A stretch of 64,000 bases of DNA from an uncultured delta proteobacterium. Its GTDB lineage: Bacteria; Desulfobacterota; RBG-13-43-22. The stretch lies in assembly GCA_963790475.1 (NCBI GenBank), contig CAWBOS010000011.1, positions 224,001-288,000 of the forward strand. The letters are read 5' to 3'. Numbering within the stretch: the stretch's first letter is position 1; each line of letters opens with the position of its first letter. The position numbers and the translations under genes are program-made. The notes below the pieces were generated by a model that saw only the letters and a list, made by a program, of their open reading frames with translations, was not told the origin of the DNA and ran no database searches. Shown here piece by piece: positions 17,365 to 51,615 of this stretch.

Positions 17365-18618
17365 ATGAAAATCATCGCCGACTTCCATGTCCATTCGGCC
17401 TACAGCCGGGCCACCAGCAAAGAGATGCATTTGCCGACCATGGCCCACTGGGCCGGGCTGAAAGGGATTCATCTGCTGGGAACCGGCGATTTCACCCATC
17501 CAACCTACTTTGAAGAGATCAAGACCGAACTGGAAGAAACCGGCCAGGGGCTCCTTAAATTAAAGGGGGATGAGGCCGCGCCAGTCCACTTTATATTGAC
17601 TGCCGAAACCAGCCACATTTATACCCAGGCTGGCAAAGGCCGCCGAGTCCATATGATGATCTTCGCCCCGGCGATTCGTTCGGTGGAAAAGATCAATCTT
17701 CATCTGGACCGCATCGGCAATGTCAAGTCCGACGGCCGCCCCATCTTCGGCTTCTCGGCCAAGGACCTGGTAAAAATTGTCCTGGATATCGACCCGGAAT
17801 GCCTGGTTGTTCCGGCCCATGCCTGGACTCCCTGGTTTTCCGTCTTTGGTTCTCATTCCGGTTTTGACGGCCTGGAAGAATGCTTTGAAGAAGAAACGGC
17901 CAATATCCATGCTATTGAAACCGGCCTTTCCTCCGACCCGGCCATGAACTGGCGCTGGTCGGCCCTGGACCGGCTCAGTCTCATCTCCAATTCCGATGCC
18001 CATTCGCCGGCCAAGATCGGACGGGAGGCCAATATCTTCGATTGCCCCAAGACTTATGACGATATTATTCAAACCATCAAAGACAAAGATCCAACACGAT
18101 TTCTGGCCACCATCGAATTTTTCCCGGAAGAAGGCAAATATCATTTCGACGGTCATCGGAGTTGCGGGATCAGTTATGCTCCGGAACAAACGAGGGAGAA
18201 GGATTATCTCTGCCCCGTTTGTGGAAAAACCCTGGTGGTAGGCGTCATGCATCGGGTGGAGGCCCTGGCCGACCGGCCGGAAGGTTATGTACCCGAAGGG
18301 GCCGTCCCGGCGCTCCATCTGGTCCCCCTGGAAGAAGTCCTGGGTGAGGTTTACGACGTCGGGGCCCAATCCAAACGGATTCGAAAGGAGTATCTGCGCC
18401 TGATTGAACGAGGCGGGTCCGAGTTTCGGATCTTATTGGATCTTTCGGAAGAAGAACTGCGGTCTTTTATGGACGACCGCCTGGCCGATGGAATTTTGCA
18501 GGTCCGCCGGGGCCTGGTCCAGGTCAAACCCGGTTATGACGGGGTTTACGGGCAGGTAAAAATTTTCAAAATGGATGCCCCTTCCGCAGAACCTTCCCCT
18601 CAACTCACACTTTTTTAG
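17365..18618 (+). CDS. Endonuclease Q-family protein (PHP domain + Zn ribbon) with C-terminal QLTLF
   Basis: DFHVHS.YSRATS, GTGDFTHP, PAHAWTPW, SNSDAHS, GKYH.DGHR.C, CPVCG and PGYDGVYG. Confidence 0.88.
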   Translation: MKIIADFHVHSAYSRATSKEMHLPTMAHWAGLKGIHLLGTGDFTHPTYFEEIKTELEETGQGLLKLKGDEAAPVHFILTAETSHIYTQAGKGRRVHMMIFAPAIRSVEKINLHLDRIGNVKSDGRPIFGFSAKDLVKIVLDIDPECLVVPAHAWTPWFSVFGSHSGFDGLEECFEEETANIHAIETGLSSDPAMNWRWSALDRLSLISNSDAHSPAKIGREANIFDCPKTYDDIIQTIKDKDPTRFLATIEFFPEEGKYHFDGHRSCGISYAPEQTREKDYLCPVCGKTLVVGVMHRVEALADRPEGYVPEGAVPALHLVPLEEVLGEVYDVGAQSKRIRKEYLRLIERGGSEFRILLDLSEEELRSFMDDRLADGILQVRRGLVQVKPGYDGVYGQVKIFKMDAPSAEPSPQLTLF

Positions 18619-18720
18619 ACGCCTTATTTACCAGAGCCTTTTACCACCCCCGCATCACTGCAATCCCCTGCGATCCTCTCTTTCGTCTGACAAATCCCGA
18701 CCTCCCATGTTCTTTCCCTT
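18402..18720 (+). repeat. Repeat A, copy 1 (resident endoQ 3' end + downstream tail)
   Basis: Source sequence of the diverged copies at 28980, 41202 and 51194 and of the tail-only copies at 42938 and 48267. Confidence 0.9.
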
Positions 18721-18856
18721 TCCATCAGTAAACACCATTTCCCCCCTTAGTTTTCGCCAGTTCTACTTGATCCTTTCTTTTTTGCTTGCTATTCTGAATA
18801 AAACGGGCCTCCTCATATGAAATGAAAGATTCATTCTGTCACTTATCCGATTCTAT

Positions 18857-18881
18857 GGAACAAAAATGCTTTTCATTCGTT
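18857..18881 (+). promoter_or_regulatory. Putative ECF sigma promoter GGAAC-N16-CGTT
   Basis: ggaacaaaaatgcttttcattcgtt; the same architecture recurs at 19458-19482. Confidence 0.6.
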
Positions 18882-18889
18882 ATTCTAAT

Positions 18890-19444
18890 ATGGACATCAT
18901 GACCCCTCAGGCTGAAACTCTTTTAATCCAGCGATTTAAAGAAGGTGATCTATCGACGTTCAAACAGATCGTCCAGGTCCATCAGGATAGAATTTATAAT
19001 CTCTGCCAATATATGCTTGGAAATCCTCAAGATGCGGAGGATGCAGCTCAAGAGGTATTTATCAAGGCCTATCGAAAATTGAAGGATTTCAGACCCGAAT
19101 CCTCCCTTTACACCTGGTTATACCGTATCGGAGTGAATACCTGTCTTGACCATAAAAAGAAATCACGTACCGAGCCCATCAAACACCAATCCATGGATGA
19201 AGACTTGCCCTCGACCGAGCCATCACCTGAGAATCGTTATGAATCCAAAGAAATAGGTCAGACTATACAATCAGCCCTCCAACAATTGCCAAAGCATTCG
19301 CGAGCCGTCATCGTCTTGAGGGAGATCGAGGGGCTTTCCTACGAAGAAACGGCCGGGGTGCTGCATATCTCTTTAGGGACGGTTAAATCAAGGATATCAA
19401 GAGCGCGGGAGGAGATGCGCCAGCTCCTGCAAAACAAGATATGA
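18890..19444 (+). CDS. ECF RNA polymerase sigma factor
   Basis: DAEDAAQEVF, TWLYRI, LSYEE.A and GTVKSRISRAR; start placed downstream of the putative promoter (ORF open from 18866). Confidence 0.9.
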   Translation: MDIMTPQAETLLIQRFKEGDLSTFKQIVQVHQDRIYNLCQYMLGNPQDAEDAAQEVFIKAYRKLKDFRPESSLYTWLYRIGVNTCLDHKKKSRTEPIKHQSMDEDLPSTEPSPENRYESKEIGQTIQSALQQLPKHSRAVIVLREIEGLSYEETAGVLHISLGTVKSRISRAREEMRQLLQNKI

Positions 19445-19457
19445 AAATAGAATTTAG

Positions 19458-19482
19458 GGAACAAAATCGAATCTCGGTCGTT
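19458..19482 (+). promoter_or_regulatory. Second putative ECF promoter, upstream of the anti-sigma gene
   Basis: ggaacaaaatcgaatctcggtcgtt (GGAAC-N16-CGTT). Confidence 0.6.
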
Positions 19483-19502
19483 TAATAGTAGGAGAGAGAA
19501 AA

Positions 19503-19970
19503 ATGAACTGTTCACAAATAAAACCAATGATCTCTCGGTATGTAGATCAAGACCTCGATCGGGACGAAAAGAGCGTTTTTGAGCTTCACATCAACCAATG
19601 TCCGGCCTGCCGAAAAGAACTGGAAGAGCAGTTATCGATTCATGGCCTTCTGGTTTCAGCGGAAAAGTATGAAGCCCCTATCGGTTTTACAACCAGAGTC
19701 ATGGCCCGTATTGAAGAAAAAGAAAGAAGGCCTTCCTTCTGGAGTTTTTTTACGCTTCAGCCTGTCTTCCTCCGGGCCGTTGAAGTGGCCTTCGCCCTGG
19801 TTATCATCTTGATCGGCATGGTCTCTGGTAACCTGCTGTTTACCGGCAAAGCACCCGAAAGACCCATGACTGTTCAAGAATCCTTTTCTCTCGATCTTTT
19901 CCAGGCCACACCTCCTGGTTCGATCAGTGGGGCCTATATGGCCCTGGCGGAGGGAACCTATGAAAAATAA
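19503..19970 (+). CDS. Zinc-binding (zf-HC2) anti-sigma factor
   Basis: HINQCPAC (HxxxCxxC) and one TM helix; follows the ECF sigma gene. Confidence 0.88.
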   Translation: MNCSQIKPMISRYVDQDLDRDEKSVFELHINQCPACRKELEEQLSIHGLLVSAEKYEAPIGFTTRVMARIEEKERRPSFWSFFTLQPVFLRAVEVAFALVIILIGMVSGNLLFTGKAPERPMTVQESFSLDLFQATPPGSISGAYMALAEGTYEK

Positions 19971-20430
19971 TTTTATGAAATATATCCTGATCCTTTCTTT
20001 GCTGATGAACGCTTCCTTGCTTGGTGCTGCAGGGTACACACATTATAGACAGTCCCGCTATCGTATGGCCACACCGGATAATTGTCCTGCCCAAGGAAAT
20101 TATCTGTTCGAAGAGCTGTCCCTGAAACCGGAGCAAATAAAGCTCTTTCAGCAAAAAGCCGCCTTGTTCCACCGCGCCGTGGCTGAGAAGAAGAATGAAG
20201 TAAATCAGCTCAGGACTTCCCTCGTCGCCCTCATGAGGGTAGATCACACCGATAACCTGGCAATCGAAAGGACGATAGCCCATATCAATAAAATACAGGA
20301 AGAGATGCAGAATACGGTCGTTTCTCACATGCTCGAATTCAAATCCATGCTTGACCGGAAGCAGCAAAAAAAATTCCTTGATCTGGTCGAGGGCTCCATG
20401 TCCCAGCACAGGGAGGCGGTGTGTCCATGA
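19960..20430 (+). CDS. Spy/CpxP/ZraP-like periplasmic protein
   Basis: N-terminal anchor; LSLKPEQ and LDRKQQ (LTxxQ-like) motifs. Confidence 0.75.
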   Translation: MKNNFMKYILILSLLMNASLLGAAGYTHYRQSRYRMATPDNCPAQGNYLFEELSLKPEQIKLFQQKAALFHRAVAEKKNEVNQLRTSLVALMRVDHTDNLAIERTIAHINKIQEEMQNTVVSHMLEFKSMLDRKQQKKFLDLVEGSMSQHREAVCP

Positions 20431-20894
20431 TTCCAATAACAGCGCCTTTGACCCCAAATCAGACGGTAATCCCGAATAAGAAGAATCGAATGAGACTATT
20501 TCTCGGCATACTGGTCTTGACGGCCTTGTGTCTTGGCATCAATGCCATAGCCGCAGGCATTCCGCATGCCGAAGTGCTTTATATGAACCACGGCCCAATG
20601 CAGCCTACAATCAGAGAGCTAAAAACCGTCTTCGCGAATTACGGGGATAAGATCGCCGTTTCCTGGTACGACATCGATACCGGAGAGGCACAACAATTCG
20701 CCGCCAGGAAGGGCCTCCACGAACATATCCCCTTAAACATCTGGATAGACGGGTCCCAGACCATCAAACTGGCCCAGAGGACGGTAAGATTCTCCGGTTT
20801 CCCTTCAGGCTCGGGGCCTAAACCTTTTCAGGGAGATTGGACCATGCAGGATCTGAGGGCCGCGATCGACCAGGCAATTTCAAGAAAGAGGTAA
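20427..20894 (+). CDS. Exported thioredoxin-fold-like protein without CxxC
   Basis: Hydrophobic signal segment; VSWYDID...HIPLNIWIDG pattern. Confidence 0.45.
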   Translation: MIPITAPLTPNQTVIPNKKNRMRLFLGILVLTALCLGINAIAAGIPHAEVLYMNHGPMQPTIRELKTVFANYGDKIAVSWYDIDTGEAQQFAARKGLHEHIPLNIWIDGSQTIKLAQRTVRFSGFPSGSGPKPFQGDWTMQDLRAAIDQAISRKR

Positions 20895-20897
20895 CCC

Positions 20898-22163
20898 GTG
20901 TTTAGGACGAAAATTGAACAGATAATAACAAGGATCACCGCACGCATCAGCATAGTTGTCTTCTTCGTGATGGCCTTCGAAATCATGATCATGATAAGCC
21001 CCTTTGCCTTTTTCTTTTATTCTGTTTTCAATCCCATTTTCCACTTTCTTGACAGTTGGGCGGCCACAAGGTGGCTGACCACGTTCTTCCTGCCCCACAT
21101 GATTTTGCCCCCGACTCTGTTCCTCAAGGCGGTGCGCGTTTTCGGCTCCATCTGCTTTGTAGCAGGCTCCCTGACCTTTGTCATCTGCGCCCTGCAGGTA
21201 TATCTGGGGAAAATCTTTAAATGGGGGATAGTTTCCAAGGGCCTTTATCGTTATATCCGTCATCCCCAGTATACCGCCCTGGGTGTATGGGGCATTGGGA
21301 TGAGCATACTGTGGCCCCGATACATCGTCCTGGCCAGCTTGTCCGTCATGTTTATTCTTTACTATTTTTTGGCCAGGGACGAAGAGAAGAGAATGATAAA
21401 TCAGTACGGCAGGTCCTATGAAGTCTATAAGGACCGGACGGGCATGTTTGCACCGAAAGGGATTGAGAGATATTTCCCGGTTTTCCCTGGAAATTCGTTG
21501 CGGTACGCGGTTATTCCATTGTCGGTATTACTCGTGGTCATTGGATGTGGTTTCGTTCTTCGCGAGGTTACGCTGCACTCGCTTGCCTTCGAAGCCAGAG
21601 GCAATATTACCCTTGTCCCTGTTCTTCCCGAGGACAGAGCGCTGAGCGGCGCCATATTATCCGGCCTGCTGAGAAATAATCGGGTCACCGAAGCTGGCCT
21701 TGCGGCAGATAGAGACTACTTAGGATATGTCATGCCGGGGGATTACATCATGCAGGGTATGATTGCCGACACTGGGAGCGAATTCCATCTCTACAAGAAG
21801 CATCACACCGTGGCCATGATTACCGAATGGGTACTCCATCCCTTCCAGCATTTGAGGAGCTCGCCTTCGCTCCACATGGCGCAGATGTTCCATGTTGATC
21901 CCGCCGTTGCCAGGAGGCACCACTGCCCGATCCCTGTCAAAGAGAATAATGGGGTCTGTGATACCTGTAGTTACCGAAGGGTGGCTTTGGTTGAAATCGA
22001 CCACCCTGGAGGACATATTTCCGGCTACCGGCTCCTGGGTGTGAATGCTACCAGGGTGCCGATAAGCTTCGTGGACATCAACGTGAAGACTGGCGAGATC
22101 GCCGAAATCGTGCGCGTCAAGAAGGCAACGGCCTGGGAAGAGGTGCCGACGCCGGCCATTTAA
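20898..22163 (+). CDS. ICMT/PEMT-like membrane protein with soluble Cys/His-containing C-terminal domain
   Basis: GLYRYIRHPQY and EEKRM...YG..YE.Y motifs; several TM helices. Confidence 0.7.
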   Translation: MFRTKIEQIITRITARISIVVFFVMAFEIMIMISPFAFFFYSVFNPIFHFLDSWAATRWLTTFFLPHMILPPTLFLKAVRVFGSICFVAGSLTFVICALQVYLGKIFKWGIVSKGLYRYIRHPQYTALGVWGIGMSILWPRYIVLASLSVMFILYYFLARDEEKRMINQYGRSYEVYKDRTGMFAPKGIERYFPVFPGNSLRYAVIPLSVLLVVIGCGFVLREVTLHSLAFEARGNITLVPVLPEDRALSGAILSGLLRNNRVTEAGLAADRDYLGYVMPGDYIMQGMIADTGSEFHLYKKHHTVAMITEWVLHPFQHLRSSPSLHMAQMFHVDPAVARRHHCPIPVKENNGVCDTCSYRRVALVEIDHPGGHISGYRLLGVNATRVPISFVDINVKTGEIAEIVRVKKATAWEEVPTPAI

Positions 22164-22232
22164 TGCCTCCCTCCTCGAAAATTTGGCTTCGGCACAGGCA
22201 GGCTTAAAAGATAATTTGTCGTAAATTCAACA

Positions 22233-23384
22233 ATGATCTCTCCTTCCCTATCCACCCTTTTTCTGTCATTTCTTCGATTAGGCCTGACCGCTTTTGGCGG
22301 TCCGGCCATGATCGCCCACATTAAGGAGCTTTCGGTTAAAAAGAAAAAGTGGTTGAACGATGGAATTTTCAACCAGGGGATAGTCCTCTGTCAATCCATC
22401 CCCGGGGCCACGGCCATGCAAATGGCAGGCTTTGTGGGACTGAGGATAAAGGGGATCAGGGGAGCCCTGGCCTCTTATCTCGGTTTCGGACTGCCGGCCT
22501 TTGCCTTAATGCTGGCCTTTTCCATTTTATACGTCACTTATCATGATCTTCCCTTTGTCCACTCTTTTTTCTCTGGACTTCAGGTCATTGTGGTGGCCAT
22601 TATTGCCCAGGCCACCTATTCCTTCGGGAAAAGTATCTCCAATCGTTATCAAAATATTATAATTGCCATAGCCGCAGCCGGCTCCCTGGGGATCGGGATC
22701 AGCCCCTTTTTGGTCATACCAGGAGCCGGATTGGTCAGTATTTTTTTATATAGAAATACCAAGCACCCACCAGTGTCGGATCGAAAAGCGGAGCCCTGGA
22801 AGATCAAACCCATCATCTTCCTTTTATTAATCCCAATAGCCGGGTTGATAGCCCTTTATTTTTTGAACATCAAGTCGTTGGGTTTGTCCCTCCTGATGAT
22901 GAAGATCGATCTATTCGCCTTCGGGGGCGGGTTCACTTCCCTGCCTTTGATGCTGCATGAGGTGGTGGAGGTGCGGGGTTGGATTGACGAAAAAACTTTT
23001 ATGAACGGTATTGCCCTGGGCCAGGTCACCCCCGGGCCGATTGTTATTACGGCTACATTTGTGGGCTACCTATTGTTTGGTTTATTGGGCTCTCTGGTCG
23101 CCACCATCTCCATATTTACCCCCTCCTTTTTAATAATGGTAATCATAAATCCAGTATTCGATCGATTAAAATCATCGCCCCTATTTTTGAAGGCCACTCA
23201 GGGCATCCTGGCCTCCTTTGTCGGACTGCTTTTTTATGTCCTTATTAAATTTGCCCTGGCCGTTCCTTGGGATATCCTTCGAATCCTCTTTTGCCTTGCC
23301 GCTTTGATAGCCCTGATTAAAAAAATAGATCTCCTCTATATCGTCCTAACCGGGGGTATCATTTCTATCTGGTTGTTTTCTTAA
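22233..23384 (+). CDS. chrA: Chromate efflux transporter (long-chain CHR)
   Basis: AFGGP, QSIPG, AFGGG and QVTPGP in two homologous halves. Confidence 0.88.
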   Translation: MISPSLSTLFLSFLRLGLTAFGGPAMIAHIKELSVKKKKWLNDGIFNQGIVLCQSIPGATAMQMAGFVGLRIKGIRGALASYLGFGLPAFALMLAFSILYVTYHDLPFVHSFFSGLQVIVVAIIAQATYSFGKSISNRYQNIIIAIAAAGSLGIGISPFLVIPGAGLVSIFLYRNTKHPPVSDRKAEPWKIKPIIFLLLIPIAGLIALYFLNIKSLGLSLLMMKIDLFAFGGGFTSLPLMLHEVVEVRGWIDEKTFMNGIALGQVTPGPIVITATFVGYLLFGLLGSLVATISIFTPSFLIMVIINPVFDRLKSSPLFLKATQGILASFVGLLFYVLIKFALAVPWDILRILFCLAALIALIKKIDLLYIVLTGGIISIWLFS

Positions 23385-23439
23385 CGTATTTCCCTACACG
23401 AAGTTGCAATCGAATAGAAAAAAGGAAGTTCTTTTGACT

Positions 23440-23575
23440 TTGACCGCAAGTTTTTTCATTTTCGGAATAACCTTAATGGCTTCCGGGTTTTATTACCGGA
23501 CCCCCATCCCGATCCAGCCCATGAAAGCCATCGGAGCTGCGGCCATAGCCGGAGGCATCAGCCCGGGAGCCCATG
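23440..23575 (+). pseudogene. Internal fragment of a MOT1-type molybdate/sulfate transporter
   Basis: FGITLMASGFYYRTPIPIQPMKAIGAAAIA matches the P.P.QPMK motif; the rest of the gene is absent. Confidence 0.6.
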
Positions 23576-23949
23576 AACCTTTTTAAGCAATATTATAGCC
23601 AGTAATGGTCAATTTTATGATATACCTTCTTGAAACATTTGTAGAGGGTTAATTGGGAGGAGAAGACAATTTTTCAAGTAATTTAAAGTACTTCTTCCTT
23701 GTAATCCTCAAACTTCCATTCTTGAAAAACACAAGAGTTCAAAACTAATCGTCGATAAGAGGGCCTTAATATTTGGTGAACTTAGAAACGGCAGCGGCAT
23801 GGTGTAGCGGGTCATATTTTCTATGGCCTTTTTTTTTGAGATAGATTCTTGGACCATAGAAGACTTGAAAACCGGAGTGTTTCCAGTATTTCAGCAGATT
23901 TATATAATGGGGTATGATTTTACCTTTTCTGAATTATACTATGCCAGTC

Positions 23950-23979
23950 TGCGGGACCCCTTTTTGATGGGGTCCCGCA
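23950..23979 (-). terminator. Hairpin after the DUF35 gene
   Basis: tgcgggacccc-tttttgat-ggggtcccgca, perfect 11-bp stem. Confidence 0.6.
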
Positions 23980-23986
23980 TTAACCA

Positions 23987-24577
23987 CTAAAAAGAAAATC
24001 CCTTCGGCAATTGGTTCTCTTTCGTACCGTCAGGTACCCAGGCCATGTCCAAAATGGTATAGGTCGGGTCCAGCTTCTGGAAGATAGGGACCACGCGCAT
24101 GCCGATTTCCGGCTCGCCGACCGCCAGATAACTGAACAGAATCGTGACTACTCCGTCAAATTCGATATTGACGAATTTAATGGGTTTATCCAAAAAATTG
24201 AAGGCTCCCGACCGTTCGCATACCATGAAGGTGTGCACCTTAGCTGTTTTCTTGGCAAGATCGGTCATGTCGATGACCGTGTTTTTGCTAAGGCAATCCG
24301 GGCAATAGATTCTGAAGGGCTGGTAAATAGAGCCTGTGGTCTCGCATTTTGGGTTTTCACAGCGCGTACCCATCAGTTTTCCTTTGCTCAAATTCTCAAA
24401 AAAAGGAGCTTCACCACCGTAGGAATGGATGTGGGTCAACTGCCGGGGATTAGTGATCCCGATCAGCCGCCAGTCTTCTTCAGCGAGGCGGATGGGTTGA
24501 CCCAACTCAAGGTGGTGAAAATCACCTTTTATCTTATACTGTCCTTTTTTAACATATACTTGTCCTATCATGCTCAT
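23987..24577 (-). CDS. DUF35-type Zn-ribbon + OB-fold protein
   Basis: KLMGTRC...C...CPDC and EPEIGMRV; directly downstream of the thiolase-like gene. Confidence 0.85.
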   Translation of the reverse strand: MSMIGQVYVKKGQYKIKGDFHHLELGQPIRLAEEDWRLIGITNPRQLTHIHSYGGEAPFFENLSKGKLMGTRCENPKCETTGSIYQPFRIYCPDCLSKNTVIDMTDLAKKTAKVHTFMVCERSGAFNFLDKPIKFVNIEFDGVVTILFSYLAVGEPEIGMRVVPIFQKLDPTYTILDMAWVPDGTKENQLPKGFSF

Positions 24578-24590
24578 AGTCGTTTCTCCT

Positions 24591-26027
24591 CTACGCGTCC
24601 TTTTTAATTAATTTATCGGGGTCCATCAATATCGTGCAGGTTACATGAGACCCAACACCGGCATGGCTGATGGCCAGTGCCCGCTTGGCGCCCTTGACCT
24701 GCAGGTCGGTCCAGTCCGCAGGTTTCTGACGATTAAACTCCTTCCATCTCTTCTCATCGCCGTGGATCTCCCCCCAACGGTTCCAGAGGTGGCAGGCGAT
24801 CTCGAAGACTTGCATGATACCCGTCGCGCCGACTGCGTGCATGCAGCCGATGAGCCCGCCGGAAAGGTTGGATGGAAGCTTGCCCGGTTTTCCGGTTTTC
24901 GGGTTCGTGTGATAACAGTCGCCCGACTCGACGTAGTCCCGACCGTAGCCGTAGGGCCTGAGACCGATGTCCTCATAGGTCTGCATGTCGCTGATGGTGA
25001 AGGCGTCATGGAGCTCGATCACGTCCAGGTCTTCCGTCGGATCTTTAATGCCGACCTGATTATAGGCGTAATAGGCTGCCATACGGGCTGCGAGGAAACC
25101 GGTGAAACCGGGATAGCGCTCGCCGCCGGGAAACTTCTTGCCCAGATCCTTATATTGATCCGCCGTCTCGTTAGGCAGGAGGGGGATTTCCATGTCTCGC
25201 CGGTCTGCCGCCCGCAGGGTATGCGAGCCCGCGGTAACCCACATCCGCAGAGGCTTGTTGGGCGTATTCTTGGTCAGTTTCATCGCCGTTGCCTCATCGC
25301 AGATGATCGTACAGGCGACGCCGACACTCATGAGGCAGCAGTCCAGGGTACGCAGGGGGTAGGCCACAATCGGTGATTTCAACACGTCTTCCACGGTGAT
25401 CTTCATCGGCGCCTGGGCGTAAGGGTTCATGCGCGCGTATCCGTGGTGCTTCACGGCAATCTCCGCCATGGTCCTCCGGAATGAGTCCTCTTCCTTACCG
25501 AAGACCTTCCAGTATTTCTGGGCCATGACCGCGTAATATCCGGCATAGATATGGCCCAGGGGCCCTTCCCAGTCCTTGTCAGCCGCACAGGAAATATAAA
25601 AGTTACCTTCATCGGTGGGGACCTCGTCCATCCGCTCCCAGCCCATGGCCAGGCAGCAATTGGAGTATCCGGAGGCGACCGCCTTCAAAGCTTCCCACAT
25701 GGTCGTTCCGCCGGTGGCCCCGCCGGTCTTGACCCCGCAGTTGCCAAGCGGGTCGAGCCCAAGCCGGTCATGGATCAAGGCTTCGCCCAGGAGCTGATCA
25801 CCGAAGTGGTCGGCAAAGTGTCCGTAGTAGCAGGTGTGGATGTAGCTCTTCAACTCGGCGGGGGTCATGTTGATCAACTCCGCCGCCTGGGTCAGGGCGT
25901 CGATAGCGAGTTCCTCGGTCCGCTTGTCCGGAAAAGCCCGGTCGAATTTCGACTGGCCGGCGGTTACCAGGTAGACCGGCCTCATCAGTTTTGGAATTGC
26001 TAATTGTTTGTCGCTGAATTTAATCAT
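24591..26027 (-). CDS. SCP2-type thiolase-like protein
   Basis: AVKHHGYARMNPYAQ, PLRTLDCC, IELHDAF, NLSGGLI and HAVGATG. Confidence 0.85.
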   Translation of the reverse strand: MIKFSDKQLAIPKLMRPVYLVTAGQSKFDRAFPDKRTEELAIDALTQAAELINMTPAELKSYIHTCYYGHFADHFGDQLLGEALIHDRLGLDPLGNCGVKTGGATGGTTMWEALKAVASGYSNCCLAMGWERMDEVPTDEGNFYISCAADKDWEGPLGHIYAGYYAVMAQKYWKVFGKEEDSFRRTMAEIAVKHHGYARMNPYAQAPMKITVEDVLKSPIVAYPLRTLDCCLMSVGVACTIICDEATAMKLTKNTPNKPLRMWVTAGSHTLRAADRRDMEIPLLPNETADQYKDLGKKFPGGERYPGFTGFLAARMAAYYAYNQVGIKDPTEDLDVIELHDAFTISDMQTYEDIGLRPYGYGRDYVESGDCYHTNPKTGKPGKLPSNLSGGLIGCMHAVGATGIMQVFEIACHLWNRWGEIHGDEKRWKEFNRQKPADWTDLQVKGAKRALAISHAGVGSHVTCTILMDPDKLIKKDA

Positions 26028-26194
26028 AGATCAATTACCTCTTCTTTCTAGTTTCTACTTTTTATCGTTTTATTTGTCTCTTCTTGCCATTTTGCCTACT
26101 ACGGCCTTCCTTGCTCTTCTTCCATACCGCCGGCCACCATAAAAACCCTTCGATTCCATTTGGGAGCCCGCAAATTTCCTTTCTAAAAATGTTA

Positions 26195-26815
26195 TCATCC
26201 CTGATTCTCCTTTTCAATTTTTAGTTGACTAATATAAAATTTAAGTTGACTAATGGTTTGCTTCCATATGTCCGGATCTCTTCCAGCTGAATAGAGTGTA
26301 ACGGCCCCATTAATGGAAATCACGATGAAATCGGCGATTTCCTTAAAGTTAAGTCCTTTTTTCACCAGACCCTTTTTATCCGCCTCCTCCAGCCAGGAGT
26401 GAAACAACCGGGAAAAACGGATAAATCCCCGGAGGACCTTTTTACTCATGGGGGCTGATTGCCCCGAAAGCTCAACCAGCATATTAGCAAAAAAACACCC
26501 CCCCTCGAAAACATCGGCTCCCAGATAGTTTTTCAAGGCGTTTTCAATGGTTTTTTCTATGCGTTTAAGGGGATCGGCGGTCTTTCTGACATCCTTGAAC
26601 ACAATGCCTCTCCAAATCATTACGGCCTCTTCATAAACGGCATTCCAGATGGCTTCCTTGCTCCGGAAATGACCGTAGAGTCCTCCCTTAGTTAGATGGG
26701 TGGCCTCCAAGATATTGCAAATGGAGGTATTGAAATATCCTTTAACGGAAAAGAGCTGCAGAGATTTATTTACAATCTGTTGGCGGGTTTGGATTCCTTT
26801 GGTTCCCATATTCAA
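26195..26815 (-). CDS. TetR/AcrR-family regulator
   Basis: LF..KGY..TS...I.EA...TKGGLYGHF.SKE and GC motif. Confidence 0.9.
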   Translation of the reverse strand: MNMGTKGIQTRQQIVNKSLQLFSVKGYFNTSICNILEATHLTKGGLYGHFRSKEAIWNAVYEEAVMIWRGIVFKDVRKTADPLKRIEKTIENALKNYLGADVFEGGCFFANMLVELSGQSAPMSKKVLRGFIRFSRLFHSWLEEADKKGLVKKGLNFKEIADFIVISINGAVTLYSAGRDPDIWKQTISQLKFYISQLKIEKENQG

Positions 26816-27189
26816 TTGATCTCCTCAATAAAAAGCAGAACGGTTGGTATATTTTTGCATAGGAAGAAAATTTGTCAAGAAAAAATCGGCCTCAGGAATT
26901 TAATGAAAGTATAAATCGTAATTCGGAAGGATAACCAAATAAAATGGACCCGTCCAAGCCTACTCCCTGATAGACCAGGTTCATGAGTTGCTCATCCATA
27001 TGGTTAAACTTTCCCTAATTTCTATAGGAAGGATTAGGAGAATAATTTGACAGAAGGGGTTTTGTTATAAGATAATTGCTCAAGGGATCAATGGGGTAAT
27101 CGCCGAGCAATGAGGCCGGTACAGGTGAAAGCGGTATCTGCTCAAGGCGAGAGGTTTATTAATCCACATCCAAAAGGAGGAGGAAACCC

Positions 27190-28410
27190 ATGAGAAGCAA
27201 ACGAATTATTAGTTTTTTGTGCCTTGTTTTAGGTCTTTTTTTGATTAACGGCCCGGCCTTTGGCAAAGGCCAATACGGCCCCGGGGCAAGCGACACCGAA
27301 ATCAAAATCGGTAACACGATGGCCTACAGCGGCCCGGCCTCGGCCTATGCAACCATCGCTAAAGCGGAAGGGGCTTATTTCAAAATGATTAACGACCAAG
27401 GCGGGATCAACGGGCGGAAAATCATTTTTCTCAGCTATGATGACGCCTACAGCCCTCCCAAATGTGTGGAACAGGTGCGCCGACTTGTGGAGCAGGATCA
27501 GGTCCTATTATTGTTTCAGGTTTTAGGCACCGCTAATAACAAGGCCATTTGGAATTATTGTAACATGAAAAAGGTGCCCCAACTATTTGTGGGTTCCGGG
27601 GCCACTATGTGGGCGGATCCCAAGGGGCACCCCTGGACCATAGGTTCACAGCCCGACTACCAGAGTGAAGGACTCATCTATGCCAAGTACATCCTTGAGC
27701 ATCTGCCCAAGGCCAAGATAGGAATTTTATATCAGAACGATGATTTCGGAAAGGACTTGAGGAAAGGCATATTGGACGGCCTGGGCAGCAAGGCGAAAAG
27801 TTTAATTGTTGCCGAACAGTCTTATGAAGTTTCTGATCCCACCGTGGATTCACAAATTGTCAATTTAAAAAACAGCGGGGCCAATGTCTTTCTCAATTTT
27901 ACCACCCCCAAGTTTGCCGCCATGGCCATCAAAAAGGCCTATGAAATCGGCTGGAAACAGGTCCAATTCATCGCGCGGGTATCCAACTCTGAGGGTTCGG
28001 TGCTGAAACCGGCCGGGCTTGAGGCCTCTGAAGGCGCCTTGTCCCTCTTCTATCTGAAAGACCCGGACGACCCCGAGTGGAAAAATGATCCGGCCATTAA
28101 AGAATGGCAGGCTTGGATGAAGAAATACTACCCCGAGGGAAACATTCACGATATTTTCAATGTTTTTGGTGTCACTCAAGCCCAGGCCATGGTCCAGGTC
28201 CTCAAACAGTGTGGCGATGACCTGACCAGAGAAAATGTCATGAGACAGGTGGCCAATCTCAAAAACCTGGCGTTGCCCCTGTTTCTGCCGGGGATAAAGA
28301 TCAATACCAGCCCGACGGACTTTACCGTTTTTAAGCAAATGCAGTTTGGTAAATTTAATGGGCAGCGGTGGGTATTATTCGGCAGAATACTTGAGACCTC
28401 ATCGAGATAG
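27190..28410 (+). CDS. Branched-chain amino acid-type ABC substrate-binding protein (no permeases adjacent)
   Basis: Signal peptide, YSGPAS, INDQGGINGRKI, DDAYSPPK and QNDDFG; SD aggagg. Confidence 0.88.
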   Translation: MRSKRIISFLCLVLGLFLINGPAFGKGQYGPGASDTEIKIGNTMAYSGPASAYATIAKAEGAYFKMINDQGGINGRKIIFLSYDDAYSPPKCVEQVRRLVEQDQVLLLFQVLGTANNKAIWNYCNMKKVPQLFVGSGATMWADPKGHPWTIGSQPDYQSEGLIYAKYILEHLPKAKIGILYQNDDFGKDLRKGILDGLGSKAKSLIVAEQSYEVSDPTVDSQIVNLKNSGANVFLNFTTPKFAAMAIKKAYEIGWKQVQFIARVSNSEGSVLKPAGLEASEGALSLFYLKDPDDPEWKNDPAIKEWQAWMKKYYPEGNIHDIFNVFGVTQAQAMVQVLKQCGDDLTRENVMRQVANLKNLALPLFLPGIKINTSPTDFTVFKQMQFGKFNGQRWVLFGRILETSSR

Positions 28411-37977: not shown

Positions 37978-38067
37978 GGTTTTGGGGTGCCATAATTCAT
38001 AAGGGTTTTGTTTTCTTGGAGCAATAACCATGAAGGGTTAAAAAAAGTTGAAAGGCAGGGGCAGGAA

Positions 38068-40350: not shown

Positions 40351-40603
40351 TGCTGAAATTTCAAAGGTTAATGTGTCAGCGATAACTTCACTGCACCAAT
40401 CACTCATCAGGATCAAGAAATCTTTTGCGGTTTCCTGATGATTTTATGTTCTCCCTTACCCATCAAGAGGTTAGAAACTTGAGGCCTTTTCAGAGCAAGT
40501 CGTGGGTCTTGGGGTCGCATATTGAAGGTACACAAGTTTAGGAAATGAAGGGGACGTGGCCTTTATCCCCAGTGAGCATTGCATTAGCCCGTTGAAAAAT
40601 AGC

Positions 40604-40633
40604 TTGACATGTGCATACGAATGTACATATACT
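40604..40633 (+). promoter_or_regulatory. Sigma70 promoter with palindromic operator for brnTA
   Basis: TTGACA-N18-TATACT; the spacer is an IR (tgtgcat-acga-atgtaca); GTG start follows 6 nt later, so likely leaderless. Confidence 0.7.
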
Positions 40634-40639
40634 TTTCTT

Positions 40640-40906
40640 GTGTTCGAGTGGGACCCAAACAAAGACCGACTGAACCAGAAAAAGCACGGAGTGGGTTTCG
40701 CGGATACCTTCGCCGTATTTGAAGATCCGAACGCTCTCACCATGGAAGACTACGAACACGGTGAAGAACGTCAGGTGACTGTCGGAATGGATTGCTTCGG
40801 CAGAATTCTTGTCGTGGTTTATCGGTGGCGTGACGAAAACATCCGAATCATATCTGCGAGGAAAGCAACAAGATCAGAGGTAAAAGGCTATGAAACTCAA
40901 TTATGA
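40640..40906 (+). CDS. BrnT-family toxin
   Basis: FEWDPNK...N.KKHGV.F, EER and IRIISARKAT. Confidence 0.9.
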   Translation: MFEWDPNKDRLNQKKHGVGFADTFAVFEDPNALTMEDYEHGEERQVTVGMDCFGRILVVVYRWRDENIRIISARKATRSEVKGYETQL

Positions 40907-41144
40907 TTTTAGTAAGGCTCGGCGGGGAGCAGTGATTCCTCCCTCGGGCAACAAAGTCAGGATTACCATTCGACTGGACAGGGACATTATAGAATGGTTC
41001 AAGTCGCGGGTGGAAGAATCTGGGGGCGGAAATTATCAGACCCTGCTTAACAATGCCCTCCATGAATACATCACGAATCGGGACGAGACTATCGAAAAGG
41101 TCCTTCGACGAGTTGTCCGCGAGGAATTGCATGCTGTCCGCTGA
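40890..41144 (+). CDS. BrnA-family antitoxin
   Basis: YDFSKA, ITIRLD.DII.WFK and YQTLLN.AL. Confidence 0.9.
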   Translation: MKLNYDFSKARRGAVIPPSGNKVRITIRLDRDIIEWFKSRVEESGGGNYQTLLNNALHEYITNRDETIEKVLRRVVREELHAVR

Positions 41145-41201: not shown

Positions 41202-41338
41202 ATGTACGACTGTCTGACCGATGGAATTTTGCAGGTCCGCCGGGGCCTGGTCCAAGTCAGGCCCGGCTATGATGGGGTTTATGGGCAGGTAAAAATTTCC
41301 CGAAATGATAGACCTTCCATAAAATCCTCTCCGCAACA
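41202..41338 (+). repeat. Repeat A, copy 3 (endoQ 3' coding part only)
   Basis: Reads MYDCLTDGILQVRRGLVQVRPGYDGVYGQVKISRND. Confidence 0.9.
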
Positions 41339-42825: not shown

Positions 42826-42930
42826 GTCTCCGATTGACTTATTAAACCGATACAGGGACTAAAGGAACATGAGCAGGCCACTGTGGATAGAATATGAGGG
42901 AGCCCGATATCATGTGATGAACCAAGGGAA
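42826..42930 (+). pseudogene. Repeat C, copy 2 (RAYT 5' stub)
   Basis: MSRPLWIEYEGARYHVMNQG, joined almost directly to a repeat A tail. Confidence 0.75.
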
Positions 42931-42937
42931 GGCGGTT

Positions 42938-43092
42938 GCATCCCCCGGAGATCCTTTCTTTCAATGGTCCCAGTTCCGCTCTCCCATCTTCCGTCCCTGT
43001 CTAATTTTTTTGCCACCGGACGATGAACGCTCAACACCGAACATCTTCTCCTTTTTTCCTTGCCCCTCTCCCCTCTTTTCTTTTTAGTAAAC
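42938..43092 (+). repeat. Repeat A tail-only copy
   Basis: tccccggagatcc...gacgatgaacgctcaac...tagtaaac matches 29164-29300. Confidence 0.8.
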
Positions 43093-43135
43093 GTTCCTGT
43101 CAAACGGCGGACTTCAAAAAAAAATTTCTTAGGGC

Positions 43136-47919: not shown

Positions 47920-48068
47920 GTCTCCGGTTGACTTATAAACCGATATGGATACCAAAGGAATATGAGGGAACCTGGTATCATGTGATGAACCAGGGGAGGA
48001 GATCGGATCGGATTTTTAAAGACCGGAACGATTATCGGTTGTTGATTGACTTGATGGAGGATATAACC
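47920..48068 (+). pseudogene. Repeat C, copy 3 (RAYT 5' stub with internal deletion)
   Basis: EYEGTWYHVMNQGRRSDRIFKDRNDY; deletion between two gaatatgag-like direct repeats. Confidence 0.75.
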
Positions 48069-48266
48069 TGGGGTGCCCTGCTTTGACGAGATTGACGATT
48101 TAGCTGAGGGAGGGAAGACAAAAACAAAATGCAAAAAAATGGACCCCCGACTGTGAACTTCATTGAACGGCTGTCTCGGCCCCTGCCAGAAACCAAGACA
48201 AGGCCGTCTTCAAAGACCGCCAAGACTGTGAATTTTTTCTTGAGGTAAAAAGCTAAACATTATAGA

Positions 48267-48335
48267 TCCGCCCTCCATGTTCTGTCCCGGTGTTAAGATT
48301 TTTTCTCCTGACGACGAACGATGAACGCGCAACGG
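48267..48335 (+). repeat. Repeat A tail, degenerate copy
   Basis: tccgccctccatgttc...gaacgatgaacgcgcaacg. Confidence 0.6.
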
Positions 48336-48450
48336 TGAGCGTCTCAGATTTTCCTGGCTTTTCCGTTTCCTTTGTTGTTTAATAAGTTTGTTTTCTTGAA
48401 TATAAAGAAAAAAATTACCCGGAGATTCTTCATCCTTTTTTGGAGGCAAA

Positions 48451-48650
48451 TCCTAACCCTTTATGGGAAACTTATCGCGCTTATGTGAAAAAAAATACCC
48501 CAAAGAGAGAAAATGAGGAGACAAAAAAAGTAATTCAGGACCGAGACTTGAAAGGGGATGATTCATTTTATGAACCTATTTGATACGTAAGACTTTAAAA
48601 AAAGTTTAAGTTTTTTGAAACAGAGATAAATGGCATAAAAACTGCTTTAT
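48451..48650 (+). repeat. Repeat D, copy 2
   Basis: Colinear with 29461-29670. Confidence 0.7.
48631..48646 (+). promoter_or_regulatory. Sigma54 promoter
   Basis: TGGCATAAAAACTGCT (GG-N10-GC). Confidence 0.65.
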
Positions 48651-48839
48651 TAATTAGTATCTATCTTCAGAGGTTTCCTTTCCGAATGAATAAGTATTCA
48701 GCCTTTTTAGCTGTTTTTAATCTGTTTTATTTTGGATTAGCAGTAGCAAGAGTCAAACGTAAGCTTAATCCCTTTATTGGCACATTAGGTCTCCCGCCTG
48801 TTATGAATAGACATAGTCGGGGGAGATTGTTCTGCCCAT

Positions 48840-50999
48840 TTGGAACCTATTAAATTATTAATGAATAAGCCAGGAATCAGACCAGGGATCGGTAAGATCA
48901 TTGAGGTCCGGAATTTATTGGAGGAAGAAGAAACCAAGGGCCGTGATCTGACCTATGGGAATTTATTTGAATTGGTCCGATTATTAACCGAAGGAGAACT
49001 GGAGAGAGGATTCAACAATGCCAAAAAGATCCCCCGCAAAAAACTGATCGACCTTCTCAATTATTTCAATTTCTCTGAGAGAGAATTTTTAGTTGTTTTC
49101 AGTCATCCCCAATACGATGAGATCGTAACCCGGGCCATCAAACCCCAGCCCTGTCAGGAAGGCACCATTTCCGGCCTATGGGCCCGCCCGGGGGACTATA
49201 GTGAATCTTTGAAAGATTTCGAAGTGCTTTGTTTTCTGATTGAAAACGAGAGAGAAATCCTTTTGGCCCAATCGCGGCGCGTCGAAATAGATGAGCAGGG
49301 GATTGGGTTGACCTTGCCGGAATTCGGTTTTGAAATCATTATACGGAAAACCAATCGATACCCCTGCCATCAGGTTCAGGCGGAATTGATTCAAAACGGG
49401 ATTCTTTTCCCAGGGCGTCTGGATGTCTTCAGCGTCAACTCTTTTCGGGTGGAAGTCTTTTCCGAAGAAGGAAAATCTTTAAAATGGATTAATTCCGAAT
49501 ATCCTGTCCAAATCATTCTAAAGGATCGAGAAGAAATTTTATATTCCCGGCAGTGTAAAATAGTCAAGCAGAGGGAAAATCTTAATACGAAAACTTTAGT
49601 ATTGGAACCCAACCATGAACCTATCCATAGATTCAAACGAAGAGAGTTTCGTGCCTCGAGAACAACCCTGCATCCGTCCCCCGGGGTTTATTGCCTTCAC
49701 CCATTGATTAAGAGACTAATAAAATTTAATGTCTGCGATATATCGACTTCCGGTTTCTCCGTGGAAGAAGAAGGGGGATCCTCCACACTTCTGCCGGGAA
49801 TGATCATTCCCGACCTTCAAATCGAGCTGGCCAATACCGCCACCTTATCCTGCAAAGCCCAGGTCATTTATCAAAATAAAATGGAAGACACGGTTGTCAA
49901 ATCCGGCTTTACTATTTTAAATATGTCCAATGAAGACTATATTAAATTAACCAACCTGGTCAATAAATCCATGAATATTAATCTGGATATTTGCGGGACC
50001 ATTGAACAGGAATCTTTGTGGCAATTTTTCTTCCAGGCCGGATTTATCTATCCGCAAAAATATCATTATATCCAGCAAAATAAAGAAGATTTTAAAAACA
50101 TTTATAAAAAGATCTATCAAAGTCCGACGGAAATCGAGAGACATGTTACCTACCAGGAGAGGGGAAGCATACTGGGACATATCTCCATGCTCCATGTTTA
50201 CGGTGCCACCTGGATGCTTCACCACTTTGCAGCCACCCCCAGTTCCAGACACAAGAAAGTGGCCTTGACCCTGTTGCAGCAGATCGAACAGTATATCATC
50301 GATTCCCATTATCTTGAATCTACCCGGATGGATAACATCATCTGTTATTTCCGGCCGGAAAACAAGTTCCCCAATCTGGTTTTCGGAGGAGCGGCCAGGG
50401 CGTTAAAAAACCCGAAGATCTGTTCGCTGGATCGTTTTGCCTATATCTCCTACCCCATGATCCTGAGCCCCCATCAAGGGGAACTTCCCGAACCCTGGAC
50501 TATGACCCCGACCGGGCCGAACGATTTGGACGAACTGGCCCATTTTTATAACCATACCTCCGGAGGGCAAATGATCCAAGCCCTTGATCTGTATCCGGAT
50601 ACATTGAAAGACGATCGTTTAAACCAAACCTATCATCGCCTGGGTTTTAAACGGGAACGTCATCTTTTTTCGATCAAAAAGAAAGGCAAGGTCAAGGCTA
50701 TCATAAGCCTGATCAAAACCGATACCGGCTTGAATTTATCGGAATTGACCAATTGTGTAACGCTGTTTGTTTTGGAACCGGAAAGTTTTCCTTTTGAGGT
50801 GTTCTTAAAGACTTTTTCTCAGTTGGGGGTCCATGATGAACGTCAAACGATCCCTGTTTTAATTTATCCTGCCCAATATGCCGAACGTCATGCCATGGCC
50901 TGTGACCGTTTTTATGACCTCTGGGTTTTTGGGGTGGAAAACAGCGATCATTATTTCAATTACGTCAATAAGATCTTTTCGCGCCTTGTTTCTTTATAG
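48840..50999 (+). CDS. Large PilZ-domain-like protein with possible GNAT-like C-terminal region
   Basis: RKTNR and RASR...DISTSGF (RxxxR/DxSxxG); C-terminal GHISM...TWMLHH. Confidence 0.65.
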   Translation: MEPIKLLMNKPGIRPGIGKIIEVRNLLEEEETKGRDLTYGNLFELVRLLTEGELERGFNNAKKIPRKKLIDLLNYFNFSEREFLVVFSHPQYDEIVTRAIKPQPCQEGTISGLWARPGDYSESLKDFEVLCFLIENEREILLAQSRRVEIDEQGIGLTLPEFGFEIIIRKTNRYPCHQVQAELIQNGILFPGRLDVFSVNSFRVEVFSEEGKSLKWINSEYPVQIILKDREEILYSRQCKIVKQRENLNTKTLVLEPNHEPIHRFKRREFRASRTTLHPSPGVYCLHPLIKRLIKFNVCDISTSGFSVEEEGGSSTLLPGMIIPDLQIELANTATLSCKAQVIYQNKMEDTVVKSGFTILNMSNEDYIKLTNLVNKSMNINLDICGTIEQESLWQFFFQAGFIYPQKYHYIQQNKEDFKNIYKKIYQSPTEIERHVTYQERGSILGHISMLHVYGATWMLHHFAATPSSRHKKVALTLLQQIEQYIIDSHYLESTRMDNIICYFRPENKFPNLVFGGAARALKNPKICSLDRFAYISYPMILSPHQGELPEPWTMTPTGPNDLDELAHFYNHTSGGQMIQALDLYPDTLKDDRLNQTYHRLGFKRERHLFSIKKKGKVKAIISLIKTDTGLNLSELTNCVTLFVLEPESFPFEVFLKTFSQLGVHDERQTIPVLIYPAQYAERHAMACDRFYDLWVFGVENSDHYFNYVNKIFSRLVSL

Positions 51000-51064
51000 C
51001 TTGGGGGTCCCCCTCCCCTTTCTCAAGACCTTTGAACAAAGTCCCCAGACCAGAAAATCTTTGG

Positions 51065-51190
51065 CCATGGGGTCACCATTAAAAAGCCACCGTCTAGAGA
51101 AAAGGTTTTCCGTATACAAGAAGAAGCTTTTTTCTTGCAGTGCATAGGCATGATAGAACTGCCCAAGATTTCCAACGTCCTTACCTTTCG
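51065..51190 (+). repeat. Repeat B, copy 3
   Basis: Directly precedes repeat A copy 4. Confidence 0.7.
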
Positions 51191-51193
51191 TCA

Positions 51194-51615
51194 GATAGAA
51201 CGAGGCCGGTCCGAGTTTTGGATTTTAATGGATCTTGAGGAAAAAGAAATGCGGTCTTTATGGACGGCCGCCTGGCCGATGGAATTATGCAGGTCCGCCG
51301 GGGCCTGGTCCAGTTCAAGCCCGGCTATGACGGGGTTTACGGGCAGACAAAAATTTCCCGAAATGATGTCCTCCTGCCAAAACCTTCCTCCCAACTCACA
51401 CTTTCTTACCGCCATATTTACCAGAGCCTTTCACAAGCCTGGCATTCCCCGGAGGTCCTTTTTTCATGTAACAAATCCCGACCTCCATGTTCTTTCCCTG
51501 TGTAATGGTTTTCTCTGAACGATGAACGCTCAACGCCGAATGTCTTTTCCTTCTCCCTTGCCCCCCTTCCCCTCTTTTTTTTTGGTAAACTTTCCGGCCA
51601 TGGCCCGGTTTAGGA
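51194..51615 (+). repeat. Repeat A, copy 4 (longest; endoQ 3' end + tail)
   Basis: IERGRSEFWILMDLEEKEMRS / MDGRLADGIMQVRRGLVQFKPGYDGVYGQTKI...SSQLTL with a 1-nt indel. Confidence 0.9.

Follow-up and report, generated by a model that had tools for sequence, protein, structure and literature searches.

An array of endonuclease Q gene-end copies in an uncultured Thermodesulfobacteriota genus: a case for serial homology-anchored displacement

The wider literature on displacement arrays includes the related orphan modules of CdiA and Rhs loci, tandem site-specific islands are exemplified by the tycheposons, and in the pangenomes of E. coli and Pseudomonas there are hotspots without integrases between core genes, in which genes for defence and competition reside. 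For Rhs arrays, direct repeats of partial cores 'of varying length' have been described, and homologous recombination with circular intermediates was proposed (Jackson et al., 2009, PMC2935791). In a study of Vibrio cholerae, homology-facilitated illegitimate recombination was proposed for arrays of type VI secretion system (T6SS) effector-immunity genes, whose resemblance to integrons without an integrase was noted by the authors (Kirchberger et al., 2017, PMC5361080). Islands at the 3′ ends of protein genes are also known, for example SGI1 at trmE, as mentioned in PMC8409611. The locus considered here is an array of partial copies of the 3′ end of the gene for endonuclease Q (endoQ), separated by unrelated cargo, in a 64,000-nucleotide stretch of DNA (the window; positions 224,001 to 288,000 of contig CAWBOS010000011.1, assembly GCA_963790475.1, here contig C11 of genome G000). 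The lineage is an uncultured Thermodesulfobacteriota genus of sulfate-reducer type, known solely from metagenome-assembled genomes (MAGs); the source genome (6.34 Mb, 20 contigs) and all genomes compared with it, designated by other G numbers, are MAGs. We favour the view that the array probably arose by serial homology-anchored displacement of the endoQ gene end and was not driven by an integrase.

The resident endoQ gene is intact (17326..18618, plus strand) and encodes a protein of 430 amino acids that ends in PQLTLF. The product matches the Pyrococcus EndoQ chains 5zb8 and 7k30 over residues 16-413 (E ~1e-52, PDB sequence search), and the Pfam result is a weak PHP_C match alone. The gene is followed by a non-coding tail (tail B, 18619..18719, plus strand) that aligns with the tails of the second and fourth copies. 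As an earlier sequence-only reading of the window had claimed, the 3′ part of the gene recurs three times, always in direct orientation, at 28980, 41202 and 51194, over lengths of 136-319 nt by self-BLAST. Counting the resident end as copy 1, the first of these stubs, c2 (28980..29310, plus strand), starts at the equivalent of 18472, has an in-frame TAA and continues into tail B; 18472-18717 aligns with 28980-29218 at 79.8% identity over 252 nt (E 4e-56). Stub c3 (41202..41337, plus strand) starts at the equivalent of 18469, is cut before the stop codon and has no tail (18469-18604 against 41202-41337, 81.6% over 136 nt, E 4e-31). Stub c4 (51194..51600, plus strand), which includes tail B, starts at the equivalent of 18402 and is the most decayed, with a deletion of 1 nt and the stop lost (18402-18719 against 51194-51499, 82.4% over 319 nt, E 1e-82). 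The left breakpoints therefore differ, as had been noted. Tail B stands behind copies 1, 2 and 4 and also recurs without a gene end near the two positions previously given (42938 and 48267). The first of these tails is clear (42938-43097 against 51442-51595, 77.6%, E 2e-22); the second (48268-48334 against 51478-51535, 74.6%, E 1e-5) is weak alone, and is backed by an adjoining leader sequence (module C, below) and by G012, where the corresponding tail matches it at 84%. A separate repeat search of the window returned the same repeat family (D2).

Four endoQ-end and tail queries against the whole genome matched only C11:242402-275620, on the same strand, with no endoQ-end copy by BLAST on the other 19 contigs. 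This genome-wide comparison had been proposed as a check, and since the copies occupy a single locus on a single strand they are not an ordinary dispersed repeat. Scans of the window with Rfam at gathering thresholds and for tRNA and tmRNA genes returned nothing, so the repeat is not explained by a tRNA-type target or a known RNA.

From left to right the array reads: endoQ and tail B; a block running from an ECF sigma factor to a binding protein and closing with a truncated phospholipase D (PLD)-like gene (PLD′); c2, tail B and module C; an RHS toxin gene followed by modules E′ and D′; three minus-strand genes, module E and the brnTA pair; c3; an SDH protease gene, then D′ and tail B; a block from an enoyl-CoA hydratase to a DUF2804 gene, then D′, tail B and C; a GNAT gene and E; c4 and tail B; and a response regulator with the genes that follow. 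The cargo between stubs is, by Pfam, unrelated multi-gene DNA of 0.8-12 kb with genes on both strands. In its anatomy the array resembles the 'C-terminal displacement' of Rhs genes: an intact gene is followed by direct, degenerate partial copies of its conserved part, of varying length, different DNA follows each copy, the fragments contain frameshifts or stops, new material enters beside the intact gene, older ends are pushed downstream and no integrase is involved. Rhs arrays differ in having a polymorphic toxin as anchor, in displacing distinct toxic tips each with an immunity gene, and in being retained through immunity. At the endoQ array the anchor is a housekeeping repair nuclease, and the stub ends are mutually homologous and apparently functionless, rather than distinct toxic tips with immunity genes. 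Such arrays are known at polymorphic toxin loci; at endoQ the anatomy recurs on a repair gene of the housekeeping kind, its cargo is arbitrary and it lacks a recombinase.

The in-frame TAA of c2, the deletion and lost stop of c4 and the truncation of c3 before its stop mark the copies, on the evidence of their sequences, as decaying pseudogene stubs. They retain the QVRRGLVQV.PGYDGVYGQ frame, as the sequence-only reading held, whereas its 'many synonymous changes' were overstated: the codon differences from the resident gene are mostly non-synonymous (synonymous/non-synonymous 5/11 in copy 2, 6/11 in copy 3 and 2/13 in copy 4, against 6/3, 9/7 and 11/7 for the three closest orthologs). The variants described as common to pairs of copies (AGG in 2 and 3, ATTATG in 2 and 4, TCCCGAAATGAT in 3 and 4) are all present in the alignment, and the AGG and ATTATG variants also occur in relatives' orthologs. 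Identity to the resident gene over the 133 nt common to all stubs is 81-84%, the same range as for the orthologs of other species in the genus, and the longest identities among the G000 copies coincide with the codon-conserved PGYDGVYGQVK block. When columns are classed by 12 orthologs, the differences of c2 from the resident gene fall in 22 of 95 variable columns versus 2 of 52 invariant ones, those of c3 in 24 of 90 versus 1 of 46, and those of c4 in 27 of 129 versus 5 of 86. Because the differences lie mostly at ortholog-variable sites, the stubs resemble the ends of once-functional genes, from alleles diverged to the level of species, rather than in-place duplicates. By codon position, c2 (6/6/12) and c3 (8/6/11) keep a third-position excess, for which one ortholog gives 7/3/21, and c4, farthest from the gene, has none (14/10/8); c4 also has 14 states unseen in any ortholog versus 6 and 5 in c2 and c3. 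The pattern is consistent with copies that diverged in other lineages, mostly under coding constraint, and then decayed the more, the farther they lie from the gene.

Orthologs of endoQ were found in 12 of the 13 genomes of the genus. The purD-purE genes upstream are conserved among relatives, and all 12 aligned orthologs end in QL[T/N/A/S]LF followed directly by the stop. QLxLF is, we take it, a match to the beta-clamp motif consensus, and the extreme C-terminus of EndoQ is probably a sliding-clamp-binding motif. Archaeal EndoQ cannot do without its C-terminal PIP box for binding to PCNA and for stimulation, and the authors of that work state that bacterial homologs have a beta-clamp-binding consensus at the C-terminus (PMC4858679).

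Downstream of endoQ the picture is different. Similarity ends about 12-14 nt past the stop codon and is replaced by different DNA in every relative examined, in a comparison of downstream synteny that had been suggested as a check. In G004 a CopG antitoxin gene is followed by metabolic genes; G010 has a 992-aa open reading frame (ORF) of unknown function; G011 has an HDOD gene, module C and an RHS gene 74.7% identical to that of G000 over 7.7 kb; G005 has HTH/M78, PIN and brnTA genes; G008 has BamHI and methylase remnants, PIN and brnTA (91-93% identical to 40567-41164); and G009 and G006 have other genes. Genes farther downstream of the relatives' endoQ map to other G000 contigs, so the right flank is not conserved and no common 'empty site' can be defined. 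The integrase-free hotspots of pangenomes are likewise variable regions beside a core gene, with toxin-antitoxin pairs, restriction-modification remnants, polymorphic toxins and exchange by flanking homology. Those hotspots usually reflect double-crossover replacement, with no report of serial stubs of the flanking gene, and the endoQ region departs from them also in its right flank.

Stubs themselves are present in four of the 13 genus genomes (G000, G008, G011 and G012). On contig C164 of G012 the order is GNAT (minus strand), inverted C, RAYT, HDOD, then the last ~16 nt of endoQ with B and C, then RHS; its stub-B-C-RHS unit is that of G000 copy 2 with a different left truncation. Contig C210 of G011 has the last ~35 nt of endoQ and a B-like tail. 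When a model built from the sequence of the endoQ end alone (R1) was searched in 21 genomes of the family, clear extra copies were found only in G000 (three) and G008 (four stubs on three contigs), with one marginal copy in G011, a tally that leaves out nine weaker hits (E 9e-4 to 9e-3); the short stub of G012 is detectable only via its tail. In seven genomes from other genera of the family, R1 found nothing better than E 3e-3 beyond the resident ends. None of 66 endoQ loci from many phyla (of 80 named, those whose 3′ end was complete and followed by at least 1 kb) had an extra copy of the coding end. A metagenome scan with the conserved core returned four short contigs (1.4-3.4 kb), each with a resident end and then different DNA, and no arrays. 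Contigs of relatives from another study contain the junctions E′-E, brnA-E and E-B, so module junctions are reshuffled between strains.

A filled and an empty version of one site can be compared in G008, in which three haplotype contigs cover the region (C16, C19 and C20, ~95-96% alike in shared parts), so that this bin mixes closely related populations. C16 (327 kb) and C20 have endoQ, ~4.1 kb of DNA and then a stub. C19 starts inside an endoQ end and has a first stub, hicB/hicA and a second stub. The single stub of C16 has the left flank of the first C19 stub and the right flank of the second, and the two C19 stubs have an identical ~50-nt core and differ to the left of it. The hicB/hicA cassette between them is ~0.8 kb and has no recombinase gene; elsewhere in the genus a search for it found only one 69% relative and short repeats. 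The arrangement of C19 is that expected of a Campbell-type product, in which a circle with one stub-like sequence would have crossed over with a resident stub, and the pair of C16 and C19 shows that stubs take part in further cassette gain.

The joints of the array are equally informative. Stub left edges lie at no fewer than six positions across G000, G008 and G012 (the equivalents of 18402, 18469, 18472, ~18542, ~18550 and ~18603), and c3 is cut on its right side too. The edges are ILLEGITIMATE, with variable, illegitimate left joints to truncated partners. At c2 the partner is a PLD-like (Nuc-type) gene fragment (28681..28970, plus strand) cut after about 85 codons, with no HKD part. It is 85% identical to the 5′ part of an intact paralog (G000:C10:1568768-1569058) that runs into an HKD-containing ORF, and its homology to this paralog and to relatives stops at 28970; about nine unmatched filler nucleotides separate its end from the endoQ sequence, which begins at the 18472 equivalent. 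At c4 the partner is a truncated module E (51066..51178, plus strand) that abuts the stub. The PLD′/c2 and truncated E/c4 joints thus have an illegitimate joint on one side, to which a homologous anchor on the other would correspond.

From these observations we infer a recombination route, an order of events and a role for selection. DNA from a related lineage, comprising the 3′ part of endoQ and the genes downstream of it, would recombine with the resident endoQ through common sequence, either as a circle by a single, Campbell-type crossover or as a linear piece that crosses over by homology on one side and is joined illegitimately at its distal side. The imported end would then be the working gene end, and the old end would be pushed downstream together with its former following DNA and left as a stub. 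Repetition would yield an intact gene, the newest cargo, a stub, older cargo and a further stub, all direct and with the most decayed farthest away; later deletions would erode stubs from the left or remove them wholly to leave tail-only remnants, no locus-encoded recombinase would be required, and stubs once present would provide portable homology for more gain and loss of cassettes. Events that fail to restore an intact end would be expected to be lost, because the QLxLF C-terminus probably binds the sliding clamp. The V. cholerae T6SS arrays are comparable in their conserved upstream homology anchor, illegitimate distal join and shift of older 3′ material into arrays; they consist of immunity genes under selection, whereas the endoQ cargo blocks have no common function.

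The sequence-only reading saw endoQ as an integration or recombination hotspot that had accreted several islands from related genomes. Hotspot and accretion stand, since the downstream DNA differs in all relatives and stubs occur in four of 13 genomes. The integrative-element form lacks its defining parts and finds no support: no recombinase was found here or ~6-13 kb downstream of endoQ in seven relatives, the left edges vary, and no mimic of the endoQ end turned up on viral, plasmid or phage records, which barely sample this lineage. The homology-driven accretion first offered as a fallback is the better-supported reading. Several points nevertheless weigh against displacement by homology. 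No recombination event has been observed directly, and recombination between sequences ~80-85% identical is expected to be rare. A sliding-window comparison of the resident endoQ with seven relatives gave a noisy signal and no clear mosaic breakpoint. The left edges of c2 and c3 are only 3 nt apart, an unlikely coincidence for random joints that would fit a fixed att boundary or a shared origin, and the identical ~50-nt core round hicBA would also suit a site-specific crossover catalysed in trans. RAYT-like remnants, which the displacement model treats as bystanders, adjoin tails at three places in G000, and G002 and G012 each have an intact copy close to endoQ or to a stub. G000 has ComEC and DprA, but of 14 control genomes 10 and 11 have them too, which makes them poor evidence of competence. 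Finally, the estimated contamination of G000 is 9.68%, and the apparent frameshifts of thiC and dnaJ in the window mean that some small indels of the stubs may have arisen in sequencing.

The strongest competitor is that tyrosine-recombinase elements targeted the endoQ 3′ end, each with a replacement end in its attP, and left tandem islands that have since decayed, their integrases lost or acting in trans. We consider this unlikely, even though it would explain why the copies are all direct and the gene restored after each event, the near coincidence of the c2 and c3 starts, and the bracketing of hicBA by its identical core in the manner of attL and attR. Tandem islands at gene 3′ ends and tRNA genes, such as SGI1 at trmE, share with the endoQ array the replacement end, the direct partial copies of the target and accretion beside it. 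Such islands code for an integrase, and their att cores and boundaries are fixed; at endoQ neither feature was found. The tyrosine recombinase family PF00589 has 19 matches in the genome, from which an enzyme could act in trans, and none in C11:224001-288000, the nearest being at C11:98359, ~126 kb away; the serine recombinase family PF00239 has no match in the G000 genome, so the earlier statement that the window holds no integrase is borne out. Pfam detected no recombinase family among the 54 window ORFs, nor, in seven same-genus relatives, among 62 ORFs situated ~6-13 kb past endoQ (out of 111 predicted ORFs of ≥90 aa), and no element in the array has a recombinase gene, or a remnant of one, in or beside it in the window. 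An identical core at the junctions is confined to the G008:C19 stubs. Elsewhere the at least six left edges, the c2 edge that cuts a PLD-like gene mid-domain with filler, and the cut right side of c3 are at odds with fixed boundaries. Searches for a mimic of the endoQ end gave no hits on viral contigs and none on plasmid or phage records, in collections that barely sample this lineage, and the 66 loci from other phyla lacked any extra coding-end copy. Integrons are defined by intI with attI and by cassettes set apart by attC sites; the window has no tyrosine recombinase (PF00589), no inverted repeats of 40 nt or more were found in it, and on these two results the array is not an integron.

A second alternative, quite improbable in our estimation, assigns the insertions to an HUH (Y1, RAYT-like) enzyme encoded by the D gene, acting in trans or from a neighbouring position, with the endoQ end or tail as its target and D′ as the mark of former cassettes. 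D′ does adjoin tails B at 42826-43097 and 47920-48334 and also follows the RHS block at 37802; an intact D lies two genes upstream of the G012 stub, a D-like gene starts ~250 nt past endoQ in G002, and a fourth RAYT-like pseudogene is found at 2200-2904. RAYT-like genes with a DnaA-C domain are not known as movers of cargo. The surroundings of the G008 and G011:C210 stubs contain no D sequence, the tails have no conserved hairpin by eye (no fold test was run), and each of the three D′ is truncated on the right at a different point, as passive remnants would be. The two D′-tail composites, moreover, are accounted for by deletions. The first, t5 (42826..43097, plus strand), joins D′, the first ~22 codons of a RAYT-like gene, directly to tail B; the second, t6 (47920..48729, plus strand), comprises D′, tail B (48268-48334) and module C upstream of a 719-aa GNAT-domain gene, and matches the D-HDOD-stub-B-C unit of G012 minus the 3′ part of D, the HDOD gene and the stub. 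Most simply, judging by this match, t5 and t6 would be deletions within a G012-like unit of that kind.

It is very improbable that an assembler chained strain or species haplotypes of the endoQ-downstream region into an artefactual array, for which the contamination estimate, the binning together of three G008 haplotype contigs and the apparently frameshifted thiC and dnaJ could be cited. At 75-88% likeness over 136-344 nt, the copies are not similar enough for an assembler to confuse them; the stubs are truncated and abut truncated genes instead of being full endoQ copies; the stub-B-C-RHS unit is also present in the independent MAG G012, and stubs lie inside long G008 contigs (C16, 327 kb). 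Short contigs from a second sample cross the right edge of D′ at 48072 with 0 differences (47943-48209). Contigs from public runs (best holder X1, 0.40 of sampled words), at most 643 nt long among those listed, speak neither for nor against a bridging of the main junctions, and no joints between two copies (A-to-A) were seen at a depth of ~1-4. An in-place duplication of the gene end with long neutral divergence and later insertion of cargo is equally disfavoured, since for all that the copies are direct and confined to a single locus, their differences avoid ortholog-invariant columns as under coding constraint, their variants segregate among other species' orthologs, and their neighbourhoods are found downstream of endoQ or beside a stub elsewhere (RHS in G011 and G012, brnTA in G005 and G008).

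The cargo and modules are as follows, on the plus strand unless stated otherwise. Cargo block 1 (18866..28410, no single strand) has Pfam matches to ECF sigma and anti-sigma factors, metal-resistance-like and PEMT/ICMT-like proteins, a chromate transporter, a thiolase-like pair, a TetR regulator and a periplasmic binding protein. Module C (29443..29694) is a leader common to the RHS gene and the GNAT-domain gene (29458-29569 matches 48448-48559) and also stands upstream of the RHS gene in G011 and G012. In G012 it occurs twice in inverted orientation (C164, 1-4134), flanking RAYT-HDOD-stub-B with the GNAT gene on one side and RHS on the other; G000 (47920-49881) has the isomer, in which the RAYT-HDOD-stub-B unit faces the GNAT gene, and inversion between the C copies could switch what lies downstream of that unit. 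Cargo block 2 (29860..37266) encodes a 2468-aa RHS/teneurin-like YD-shell protein with TIG, NHL and YD-shell domains and, by Pfam, a phospholipase-A2-like C-terminal tip. A small membrane ORF (37331-37657) directly after it could be its immunity partner. Module E′ and then D′ follow (37732..37991, from self-comparison, with an internal stop in D′). D′ is the decayed 5′ end of an IS200/RAYT-like gene (37802-37979, 42826-42929 and 47920-48071), of which the intact form in G012 encodes 338 aa with Y1_Tnp and Bac_DnaA_C domains. Between D′ and E, on the minus strand (38068-40052), lie an unknown 146-aa ORF, an unknown 265-aa ORF and a gene for a TIGR04255-family protein; the contigs of relatives that join E′ straight to E are without this piece of 2.5 kb.

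Module E (40228..40420) is a dispersed repeat of ~170 nt with copies on C1, C10, C11 and C12. Within the array, self-comparison places it at 37732-37787, 40228-40341 and 51066-51178, and the other G000 copies are at C12:147107-147264, C12:468064-468217, C10:357642-357778, C1:136317-136470 and C11:209246-209350. It has a conserved hairpin (of the GCAAGAAAG...CTTTCTTGC type) and no Rfam match; a miniature inverted-repeat transposable element, a small RNA and a terminator unit are candidates. The brnT/brnA toxin-antitoxin pair (40556..41144; Pfam BrnT 3e-27, BrnA 5e-11) ends 58 nt before c3 and is 91-93% identical to DNA 1.8-5.2 kb downstream of endoQ in G005 and G008. Within tail B, a ~35-nt piece was considered as an att core and rejected as a genus-wide intergenic (CGAACG)n-type motif that is not endoQ-specific. 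The motif, for example GAACGATGAACGCTCAACGCCGAA, is found in the window at 51509-51549, in the 48316 region and at 43020-43050, elsewhere in G000 at C10:989063, C11:4051 and C12:194034, and in several relatives, often just upstream of genes and, in one case, beside a tRNA gene. A regulatory or promoter-associated function is conceivable. Beyond the array, thiC (12460-13921) and dnaJ (8373-9489) are each split into two overlapping ORFs with Pfam halves, which suggests frameshifts, either real pseudogenes or indel errors of assembly. The only transposase-type genes in the window lie outside the array, namely the RAYT-like pseudogene at 2200-2904 and two tandem insertion sequence copies (54753-56135 and 56262-57623; 85% identical, DUF772 and DDE_Tnp_1) that begin 3 kb beyond the last stub.

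A more far-reaching proposal, put forward tentatively and with some doubt, is that in this genus the stubs of the endoQ end function within a cassette system that resembles an integron and does without an integrase. Stub-flanked cassettes, such as hicBA in G008, would loop out as circles when their stubs recombine with each other, and dock at any stub or resident end in the same or another cell, and the clamp-binding C-terminus of EndoQ would enforce restoration. If this were true, species of the genus would have in the end of a housekeeping gene a common and portable site of recombination, through which they exchange toxin-antitoxin, toxin and metabolic cassettes. For annotation there is a caution here, in that direct repeats of a gene 3′ end are insufficient evidence for integrase-mediated islands. 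The array suggests that the process favoured above is a general by-product of homology-anchored gene flow wherever the end of an essential gene borders a flexible region, and from it the acquisitions that an uncultured lineage has made could be read in their order.

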